Shown: positions 9,727 through 25,376 of the stretch, one piece after another | Numbering within the stretch: the first letter of the stretch is position 1 | Layout of the letters: the number at the start of each line of letters is the position of its first letter | Source: Escherichia coli | GTDB taxonomy: Bacteria > Pseudomonadota > Gammaproteobacteria > Enterobacterales > Enterobacteriaceae | DNA: 64,000 bases | Assembly (NCBI RefSeq): GCF_046105845.1 | Contig: NZ_CP151004.1 | Reading direction: 5' to 3' (one strand) | The notes under the pieces: generated by a model | The model's database searches: none | Told to the model about the DNA's origin: nothing | What the model saw: only the letters and a program-made list of their open reading frames with translations | Translations under genes and position numbers: made by a program

Positions 9727-10589
<863 letters not shown>

Positions 10590-23184: not shown

Positions 23185-24201
23185 ATGTCCACATTACGCC
23201 TGCTCATCTCTGACTCTTACGATCCGTGGTTTAACCTGGCGGTGGAGGAGTGTATTTTTCGCCAGATGCCCGCCACGCAGCGCGTTCTGTTTCTCTGGCG
23301 CAATGCCGACACGGTAGTGATTGGTCGCGCACAGAACCCGTGGAAAGAGTGTAATACCCGGCGGATGGAAGAAGATAACGTCCGCCTGGCGCGGCGCAGT
23401 AGCGGTGGCGGCGCGGTGTTCCACGATCTCGGTAATACCTGCTTTACCTTTATGGCTGGCAAGCCGGAGTACGATAAAACTATCTCCACGTCGATTGTGC
23501 TTAATGCGCTGAACGCGCTCGGCGTCAGCGCCGAAGCGTCCGGACGTAACGATCTGGTGGTGAAAACCGCCGAAGGCGACCGCAAAGTCTCAGGCTCGGC
23601 CTATCGCGAAACCAAAGATCGCGGCTTCCACCACGGCACCTTGCTGCTCAATGCCGACCTTAGCCGCCTGGCAAACTATCTCAATCCGGATAAAAAGAAA
23701 CTGGCGGCGAAAGGCATTACGTCGGTACGTTCCCGAGTGACCAACCTCACCGAGCTGCTGCCGGGGATCACCCATGAGCAGGTTTGCGAGGCCATAACCG
23801 AGGCCTTTTTCGCCCATTATGGCGAGCGCGTGGAAGCAGAAATCATCTCCCCGGACAAAACGCCAGACTTGCCAAACTTCGCCGAAACCTTTGCCCGCCA
23901 GAGTAGCTGGGAATGGAACTTCGGTCAGGCTCCGGCATTCTCGCATCTGCTGGATGAACGCTTTACCTGGGGCGGTGTGGAACTGCATTTCGACGTTGAA
24001 AAAGGCCATATCACCCGCGCCCAGGTGTTTACCGACAGCCTCAACCCCGCGCCGCTGGAAGCCCTCGCCGGGCGACTGCAAGGCTGCCTGTACCGCGCGG
24101 ATATGCTGCAACAGGAGTGCGAAGCGCTGTTGGTTGACTTCCCGGAACAGGAAAAAGAGCTACGGGAGTTGTCTGCGTGGATAGCGGGGGCGGTAAGGTA
24201 A
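23185..24201 (+). CDS. lplA: Lipoate-protein ligase A (338 aa)
   Basis: ORF track; [22 protein letters not shown]... Confidence 0.92.
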
Positions 24202-24232
24202 CTCGCTGATTTAAATATCCAGGGAAGGAAAT

Positions 24233-24496
24233 ATGAGCGATCTGGAAAACCAGGAACGGGAGATTATCAATTTAATGTTCAGCCAGGGTATATCCTGGCT
24301 AACCGCCGTGCGTATCAGGCATAAACTATCACTTGCTGAAGTAAGTAAAATGTTAGGTATCTCCATTAATTCTCTAAAACAGATCGAAAAGACGGAACGG
24401 CTTAGTTCAAACATCAAAAGCAAAATGGCAGGAATTTATGGTTGTCCACCAGAGTTGCTGATATGCCCTTCCTGGATGACGGCTGAACATAAATGA
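24233..24496 (+). CDS. 87-aa XRE-like HTH protein; likely the N-terminal HTH remnant of yjjJ (hipH-like kinase gene), with the kinase domain absent
   Basis: ORF track; ...LSLAEVSKMLGISINSLKQIEK... HTH; occupies the slot where I recall K-12 carrying yjjJ between lplA and deoD. Confidence 0.45.
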   Translation: MSDLENQEREIINLMFSQGISWLTAVRIRHKLSLAEVSKMLGISINSLKQIEKTERLSSNIKSKMAGIYGCPPELLICPSWMTAEHK

Positions 24497-24595
24497 ATAG
24501 ATTCGTGAATAGATACTTGAATGGATTTTATTTTCTATCCATATGAAAAATAATAGTGAATCTATAAATCAGTTGCTATTGATGAATAGATACTA

Positions 24596-24626
24596 AAAAG
24601 CCGGAGCAGTCTCCCGCTCCGGCTTC
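24596..24626 (-). terminator. deoD rho-independent terminator
   Basis: aaaaagccggagcagtctcccgctccggctt hairpin just downstream of deoD stop on minus strand. Confidence 0.6.
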
Positions 24627-24656
24627 ACAAGGCAATCGCCTTTCAGCAAAACACAA

Positions 24657-25376
24657 TTACTCTTTATCGCCCAGCAGAACGGATTCCAGTGCGATTTTGA
24701 TCATGTCGTTGAAGGTGGTCTGACGCTCAGCGGCAGTGGTCTGCTCGTGAGTGCGGATGTGGTCAGACACGGTACAGATGGTCAGGGCTTTCGCGCCAAA
24801 TTCTGCAGCGACGCCGTAGATACCAGCCGCTTCCATTTCCACGCCGAGGATGCCGTATTTTTCCATCACGTCGAACATTTCGCCGTCCGGAGAGTAGAAC
24901 AGGTCAGCGGAGAACAGGTTACCAACGCGAGCATCAACGCCCAGTGCTTTAGCCGCGTCTACCGCGTTACGCACCATGTCAAAGTCAGCGATAGCGGCAA
25001 AGTCATGGTCTTTAAAACGGATACGGTTAACTTTGGAATCGGTGCAGGCACCCATACCGATAACGACGTCGCGCAGTTTTACGTGCGGCAGAACAGCGCC
25101 ACAGGAGCCTACGCGGATAATTTTCTTCACGCCGAAATCGGTGATCAGTTCTTTGGTGTAGATGGAGCAGGACGGGATACCCATACCGTGCCCCATTACG
25201 GAAATTTTGCGGCCTTTGTAAGTACCAGTGAAGCCCAGCATACCGCGAACGTTGTTCACTTCACGGGCATCTTCAAGGAAAGTTTCAGCAATATACTTCG
25301 CACGCAGCGGGTCGCCTGGCATCAAAACTACGTCAGCGAAATCGCCCATTTCTGCATTAATGTGTGGGGTAGCCAT
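24657..25376 (-). CDS. deoD: Purine nucleoside phosphorylase DeoD (239 aa)
   Basis: ORF track 24657..25433; start at [31 protein letters not shown]. Confidence 0.95.

Follow-up and report, generated by a model that had tools for sequence, protein, structure and literature searches.

The toxin kinase HipH (YjjJ) of Escherichia coli K-12 is tied to persistence, cell division and genome stability. Since no antitoxin gene accompanies hipH, the control of HipH is an issue. In hipBA, another HipA-family toxin locus, DNA is bound by a separate XRE antitoxin which acts on palindromic sites. HipB and the HipA2B2 complex are described as bound to operators in the hipBA promoter (PMC8262856). DNA binding by the helix-turn-helix (HTH) domain of HipH has been postulated (PMC8262856), this domain is needed for toxicity, and cyclic di-guanosine monophosphate (c-di-GMP) acts at the hipH promoter (PMC11452175). 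The accounts of K-12 HipH/YjjJ consulted here (PMC8262856, PMC9948734, PMC11452175) describe no operator sequence. In this study, we analyse a 64,000-nucleotide stretch of E. coli DNA (contig NZ_CP151004.1), hereafter the window, and within it the interval between lplA and deoD. There an open reading frame (ORF) of 87 amino acids (aa), here named p87, is followed by an array of short repeats, here called boxes. The locus is like the K-12 hipH locus in chromosomal position, upstream boxes, distal box and deoD terminator, and differs in that the window has no hipH. It is like hipBA as a HipA-family toxin locus whose repeated operators overlap or flank its own promoter, their presumed role being low toxin expression. 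It differs from hipBA in that the predicted DNA binder of HipH is a winged helix fused to the kinase, that the boxes are direct 9-bp repeats with a 12-bp period reaching up to the start codon, and that the window lacks a toxin gene altogether.

We show that the hipH coding sequence is wholly absent from the window and that an unrelated 87-aa gene on the other strand stands in its place. The window very probably represents the p87 allele of a two-allele lplA-deoD locus, in which the hipH control array has been orphaned. Comparison of complete E. coli genomes (n=5426), which the original prediction had proposed, indeed reveals two alleles. The 571 bp around p87 match end to end in 4068 of these genomes, where p87 is annotated as 'helix-turn-helix domain-containing protein', and the right-hand 233 bp alone match in approximately 1300, where yjjJ is annotated. 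The K-12 yjjJ gene used as query is present in 1348. These numbers (4068 versus 1348) indicate that p87 and yjjJ are essentially mutually exclusive and that K-12 is of the minority type. For E. coli genetics this means that three quarters of the complete genomes carry a small regulator instead of the toxin.

Concerning the organisation of the two alleles, the position of yjjJ between lplA and deoD in K-12 is confirmed by the annotation of a K-12-type record, with lplA on the plus strand and yjjJ and deoD on the minus strand. There yjjJ is convergent with lplA, their stop codons adjoining, and the yjjJ ATG adjoins the repeats, transcription running towards lplA. p87 (plus strand) ends at the array at which yjjJ (minus strand) starts. 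In an alignment of the alleles, the homologous part starts with the CAT at 24490-24492; this triplet is complementary in reverse to the hipH ATG, which the array adjoins in hipH alleles. The boxes and the deoD terminator, whose hairpin is the same in both, are kept between the alleles; K-12 has three perfect proximal boxes, the third box of the window being TGAATGGAT. The approximately 55 bp between proximal and distal repeats are barely alignable. By blastn the box region is single-copy in each E. coli genome. Thus lplA forms the left boundary of a variable cassette and deoD the right boundary of the locus. The synteny lplA-hipH-deoD is found in E. albertii, two Citrobacter species, Pseudocitrobacter, Kluyvera, three Buttiauxella species, Siccibacter and several Cedecea, and in Erwinia, too, hipH adjoins deoD. 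In other orders hipH lies in different contexts with unchanged boxes. Since hipH carries the boxes across contexts and orders, the array belongs to hipH, and it is the p87 allele which has lost hipH.

In the window itself, three exact copies of TGAATAGAT are located at 24494, 24506 and 24583, as first noticed in the original prediction, and a fourth copy with one mismatch, TGAATGGAT, lies at 24518 in phase with the 12-bp period. The 64-kb window has no further exact copy. With both strands counted, chance would account for approximately 0.5 exact copies in a stretch of this length, and three within 100 bp are therefore not a chance occurrence. The proximal array reads ATCCATTCA-agt-ATCTATTCA-cga-ATCTATTCA on the minus strand, and the distal box lies 65 bp from the outermost proximal box (24583 minus 24518). 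The p87 stop codon TGA makes up the first three bases of box 1. Within the spacer, only the block TGAAAAATA (24544-24552) is common to the window and other lineages in the alignment; the promoter hexamer positions are occupied by TTATTT and AAATAA. Tandem ATCTATTCA boxes, a 12-bp period and a distal box at 64-67 bp are the layout found upstream of hipH genes, and the window array shows all three. The repeats are therefore the upstream array of the HipH family and were not made for the 87-aa protein, as whose possible cognate sites they had been proposed. No hipH gene with its start codon follows the array, and neither tblastn nor a HipH N-terminal profile detected hipH in this interval or elsewhere in the 64-kb window, for which reason we call the array orphaned.

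The association of boxes and hipH was followed in two samples. A pattern scan for TGAATAGATNNNTGAATAGAT in one genome per species (100,044 species), in which two exact boxes were required, gave at least 120 loci versus approximately 9 expected by chance. In 70 of the loci listed, the start of a gene for a HipH homolog with 30-95% identity to YjjJ lies at a distance of 0-110 bp from the boxes, always in the same orientation with ATCTATTCA on the hipH-sense strand. The hosts belong to Enterobacteriaceae, Erwiniaceae, Morganellaceae, Xanthomonadales, Burkholderiales, Rhodocyclales and Geomonas, and across Gamma- and Betaproteobacteria these boxes stand in front of HipH homologs with identities of only 30-40%. 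For an independent sample, metagenomes were scanned by kinase-domain peptide patterns only, which provided 75 loci with upstream sequence. At least one box with at most one mismatch is present in sense within 250 bp upstream in 60 of the 75, and at least two boxes in 49, against a background rate of 0.04 boxes per 270 bp in these loci. Arrays consist of two or three boxes, the last of which reaches the start codon or stops a few bases short of it. Adjacent boxes upstream of hipH homologs are spaced by 12 bp in 64 of 71 pairs and by 11 bp in the remaining 7, and the ATTCA core of the box shows virtually no variation. A distal box lies 64-67 bp upstream of the outermost proximal box in two subfamilies, the enterobacterial one linked to deoD and that of the Xanthomonadales (distal/outermost proximal at -101/-36 in E. 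albertii and -113/-48 in Dyella and Rhodanobacter). The putative recognition helix of HipH, SQ(A/P)T(F/L/V)SR, is nearly invariant even at 35% overall identity.

The 50 loci listed in the pattern scan which lack hipH show no recurrent association of the boxes with another gene family; they comprise shortened loci, relics of hipH loss and unrelated repeats in a Verrucomicrobia metagenome-assembled genome (MAG) and archaeal MAGs. Resemblances to the TorR box, ARG box, DnaA box and integration host factor (IHF) consensus sequences were considered and dropped, as the box tracks hipH in taxa without those regulons. Our literature search found neither an operator sequence nor a description of tandem boxes for the HipH array, which appears to be undescribed so far. 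The array (ATCTATTCA, 12-bp period, distal box at approximately 65 bp) provides a concrete candidate target for the HipH HTH, conserved from Enterobacteriaceae to Burkholderiales and Xanthomonadales, and makes autoregulation and the c-di-GMP effect on the promoter testable.

We propose that the boxes would be an operator array through which the winged helix of HipH represses its own promoter. In Enterobacteriaceae this promoter would lie between the distal and the proximal boxes, and the proximal boxes would extend over the transcript start as far as the ATG, a Shine-Dalgarno sequence being absent. The spacer of enterobacterial hipH alleles contains a sigma-70-like TTTACC-17-TATAAA, the -10 element of which abuts the outermost proximal box; judged by these hexamers, a promoter in the spacer is plausible. 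In many lineages (e.g. L003, L018, L073, L105 in our locus numbering) the last box ends 0-3 nucleotides before the hipH start, with no Shine-Dalgarno sequence visible, and translation of the toxin mRNA may be inefficient or unusual.

The window array, then, would be a hipH control region left without its gene. p87 relatives on other contigs provide the means to follow the fate of such arrays. The p87 stop within box 1 and the array (3-4 boxes) are kept in five lineages: the window, L210, L126/L129, L213 and L220. Box positions are retained at 35/36 in the window, 34/36 in L126, 33/36 in L129 and 36/36 in L213, with spacer identity between p87 lineages at 50-67%. Fisher tests of boxes against spacer give p values of 1e-3 to 2e-8 per lineage pair, and the boxes of p87 alleles are kept as well as those of hipH alleles. 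Between these lineages p87 and lplA are saturated at synonymous sites (synonymous divergence, dS, 1.3 or more). Since the boxes are kept while synonymous sites are saturated and the spacer has diverged, we infer purifying selection on boxes with no linked hipH. The orphan array therefore probably still binds a protein, the candidates being p87, HipH supplied in trans (e.g. plasmid-borne) or another factor. Lasting conservation of operator boxes without their gene would point to a binding partner of the boxes.

Supply of HipH in trans is possible. A hipH with 35% identity to YjjJ and the same boxes occurs on approximately 30 plasmids of E. coli, 92-98 kb in size. On plasmid pE2-2 (L215, NZ_CP048917.1, 2440-3790) two exact ATCTATTCA boxes lie 17 bp upstream of the hipH ATG, which indicates that HipH genes of the same box specificity circulate on E. 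coli plasmids. The rarity of E. coli plasmids with hipH weighs against supply in trans. The pE2-2 hipH adjoins lysozyme and single-stranded DNA-binding protein (SSB) genes, and this replicon may be a phage-plasmid.

Several observations weigh against our interpretation of the window as a p87 allele with an orphaned hipH array. HipH is a putative ligand of the boxes on the grounds of co-occurrence and co-conservation only, i.e. the boxes accompany hipH and the recognition helix is near-invariant. The motif is not universal, as 15 of the 75 kinase-peptide loci have no box within one mismatch, and the exactness of the boxes in the pattern scan is by construction. A consensus sigma-70 promoter was not called by scan in either allele. 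Selection on the orphan array is argued from a handful of lineages with short AT-rich alignments. Moreover, L123 and Salmonella L218 have lost the array, which in L218 has collapsed to one degenerate box, and yet keep an intact p87, so that the array is dispensable.

In the main reading of the original prediction, the kinase domain of YjjJ had been deleted, leaving the 87-aa ORF as the N-terminal HTH of YjjJ with the repeats as its possible cognate sites. In favour of such a truncation, the locus is the yjjJ locus and both proteins have an HTH. In addition, genuine HTH-only truncations of hipH exist. E. coli WB61 (L214, NZ_CP020025.1, 1449-1640) keeps only the 5' 140 nucleotides of yjjJ, labelled as a partial 'transcriptional regulator' pseudogene by the Prokaryotic Genome Annotation Pipeline (PGAP), and Buttiauxella noackiae (L116, approximately 10130-10440) keeps only hipH residues 13-67. 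Both lie on the hipH strand, whereas p87 lies on the opposite one. Comparing the p87 cassette with the K-12 yjjJ locus gave nothing on either strand by blastn (word size 7) or tblastn. BLASTP of p87 versus YjjJ returned E = 0.2 over 6 residues, a profile of more than 60 HipH N-termini scored -0.2 bits on p87, and the SQxTxSR motif is absent from p87. The folds differ as well. A model of HipH residues 1-105 (predicted local distance difference test, pLDDT, 93) shows a winged helix (three helices plus a beta wing) followed by a beta domain, with SQATFSR on the recognition helix and ArsR/SmtB-type proteins as the nearest solved structures; a PDB sequence search with YjjJ had no match at E up to 0.001. 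p87 is modelled with a Cro/CI fold and, on these models, is not a remnant of the ArsR-like winged helix of HipH. A truncated remnant is also at odds with a colinear 87-aa ORF kept at 43-51% identity in other genera. A full-length kinase gene hidden by a frameshift is excluded, since the interval of 455 bp (24202-24656) is too short for a 1.3-kb gene. Lack of similarity to the YjjJ N-terminus is the outcome which the prediction itself had named as refuting it. We consider the kinase deletion hardly credible, and the prediction's fallback of a distinct small regulator is the one which stands, p87 being unrelated to HipH in sequence, profile and fold.

Two further explanations accept p87 as a distinct gene and concern the array. 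In one, p87 and the boxes form a working unit in which the Cro/CI protein took over a winged-helix operator, e.g. to silence the orphan promoter of hipH, which is directed antisense into p87 and lplA, or to block read-through into deoD. No gene other than p87 is always linked to the orphan array, the stop in box 1 and 3-4 boxes are kept across the five lineages despite saturated synonymous divergence, and the ratio of nonsynonymous to synonymous substitution rates (dN/dS) is approximately 0.8 (0.80) on the array-less L123 branch. Such a takeover is nevertheless doubtful. The putative recognition helix of p87 varies (SINSLKQIEK, TPESLARIEK, TAEALKRIEK) with boxes the same as in hipH alleles, no boxes lie near a likely p87 promoter in the window, and the usual binding sites of XRE proteins are inverted repeats rather than 12-bp direct repeats. 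Salmonella L218 keeps p87 at a dN/dS of 0.27 without the array; since constraint persists in this lineage, p87 function does not rest on the boxes alone. Alternatively, the array might be a functionless relic of the lost hipH which has yet to decay. In p87 alleles the promoter-like hexamers of the spacer look degraded, two p87 lineages deleted the array without visible damage to the ORF, and other relics after loss or replacement of hipH are found in L053, L042, L070 and L116. Retention of 33-36 of 36 box positions, set against the saturated dS and the diverged spacer, and as complete as in hipH alleles, makes a mere relic improbable. Going beyond the orphaned control region which we favour, we advance with due reserve that the orphan array might be a working element of the p87 allele, either by p87 takeover of the HipH operator or as a site for HipH of plasmids or phage-plasmids with p87 as antagonist, hipH and p87 being ancient alternative alleles. 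If true, hipH as a toxin-regulator and p87 as an anti-toxin regulator would be kept side by side across Escherichia and related genera.

The predicted 87-aa XRE-like HTH ORF between lplA and deoD is confirmed. p87 matches Pfam HTH_3 (PF01381) with 25.4 bits (cutoff 23, E = 1.5e-5) and Sigma70_r4 with 26.8 bits (cutoff 24.1). Its AlphaFold2 model (pLDDT 89) shows an N-terminal helix plus an all-helical five-helix Cro/CI HTH. With a profile score above the curated threshold and helix 2-turn-helix 3 within a five-helix bundle, p87 is a member of HTH_3. The best Foldseek matches in the PDB are dr_2454, CylR2, DdrO, C.BclI, SinR and 434 Cro, along with P22 c2. CylR2, restriction-modification C-proteins and the N-terminal domain of SinR are aligned with probability 1.0 and root-mean-square deviations of 1.5-2.1 over 53-60 residues, CylR2 also showing weak sequence similarity (E = 0.007). 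They differ from p87 in that no genomic context or known target is common to them and p87, and in that p87 has the extra N-terminal helix and a conserved YGC..LL.CP.W tail.

An HMMER search of 1.84 billion representative proteins gave 33 matches to p87 at E up to 1e-3, the strong ones nearly all being Escherichia sequences or fragments, and profile searches added a few full-length relatives at 43-51% identity. All relatives with readable contigs lie at the lplA-deoD locus, namely in Enterobacteriaceae (L123, L126/L127, L129, L213, L220/L222), in two Salmonella enterica assemblies (L128, L218) and in a divergent E. coli (L210). In Klebsiella sp. RHBSTW-00484 (L223, CP056483.1, 1501-1668) a rearrangement has truncated p87 at residue 55 and placed MerR-family regulator and cation-efflux genes downstream of lplA in place of deoD. 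Database names also put p87 in E. marmotae, Shigella and Escherichia sp. E1130. Word-indexed searches and the exhaustive HMMER search found no p87 homologs outside the lplA-deoD context, with generic XRE matches only below the level of E ~1e-6. The family aligns colinearly over 87 residues with the conserved motifs SWLxAVR, L..IEK and YGC..LL.CP.W. Pairwise dN/dS values of 0.2-0.4 versus 0.03 in lplA indicate that p87 is a real gene under purifying selection, though fast-evolving. A supposed relative of 70% identity, P0036, was rejected as an artefact, its contigs L124 and L125 consisting of C-to-T converted (bisulfite-type) E. coli reads. In these contigs (Logan SRR18740011 and SRR13921544) nearly all C are turned to T, which yields spurious protein clusters.

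Outside its own family the nearest relatives of p87 are phage regulators of phrog_7241 (E = 2e-9), e.g. in Pasteurella phage Pmp14 and phage PPyecE_EH1910. They have the Cro/CI HTH fold of p87, are antitoxins by annotation and show 30-36% identity (36% over 87% of p87). Since these regulators follow RelE-like toxin genes, descent of p87 from a HigA-like antitoxin HTH is suggested. They differ from p87 in their length of approximately 122 aa and their position behind a RelE/HigB-type toxin gene, p87 being fixed downstream of lplA. No toxin gene adjoins p87, whose neighbours are lplA and deoD, and in this respect p87 departs from a type II antitoxin.

Table 1. Features of the lplA-deoD region, in positions of the window
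Feature	Position	Strand	Basis
lplA (lipoate-protein ligase, 338 aa)	23185-24201	+	ORF; annotated lplA in matching E. coli records
p87, 87-aa Cro/CI (XRE)-type HTH gene	24233-24496	+	ORF, Pfam, AlphaFold2 model
Proximal HipH-type box array, three boxes, 12-bp period	24494-24526	-	matches layout upstream of HipH homologs
Spacer, distal to proximal boxes	24527-24582	-	anchored comparison of more than 70 loci
Distal HipH-type box (ATCTATTCA)	24583-24591	-	after T-tract of deoD terminator
deoD terminator hairpin	24598-24625	-	inverted repeat: 10-bp perfect arms, 8-nt loop, then TTTTT
deoD (purine-nucleoside phosphorylase)	24657-25376	-	ORF and annotation

The gene order in the window is radA, serB, ytjB, lplA, p87, deoD, deoB, deoA (Table 1). 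The p87 start codon lies 31 nucleotides past the lplA stop, with a Shine-Dalgarno-like GGAAGGA 6 nucleotides upstream. A consensus scan found no terminator-like site between lplA and p87, and the p87 transcript is probably supplied by co-transcription with lplA. Scans for consensus promoters and terminators, run on the window region and on the K-12 region, called nothing; they carry little weight, because the obvious deoD hairpin was missed as well. No RNA family of Rfam matched positions 23900-24900 on either strand at E up to 1. From the retained hipH start codon a minus-strand ORF of 26 codons (MFSRHPGRAYQQLWWTTINSCHFAFDV, 24490-24410) runs antisense to the p87 C-terminus; since it is not conserved in L213, it is probably meaningless.

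Two groups of loci carry the repeat with no hipH nearby. In one Verrucomicrobiaceae MAG (L005-L009) the same 21-mer occurs five times, each 19 nucleotides upstream of an identical AAA-ATPase-like ORF, and is thus part of a repeated element. In two Acinetobacter towneri strains (L035, L122) the same 21-mer lies upstream of an ORF beginning MTIQRCGWCSDDPLYIAYHDLEWG, which we take to resemble Tag, 3-methyladenine glycosylase I.

The lplA-deoD locus is a site of repeated change. In the Enterobacteriaceae bacterium RIT691 (L053, WJYM01000004.1, approximately 600-1275) a gene for a 216-aa DUF2238 (YjdF-like) membrane protein lies between lplA and deoD. It has the place and orientation of hipH, its ATG directly abuts ATCTATTCA boxes, and the spacers are as in Escherichia; besides hipH and p87, it makes a third cassette at this locus, placed under the control region of hipH. 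Furthermore, p87 and array are nearly identical between L126 and L129 (metagenome and Logan contigs; dS 0.18) in spite of a dS of 1.9 between the adjoining lplA genes, which indicates that either the p87 module or lplA moved between species.

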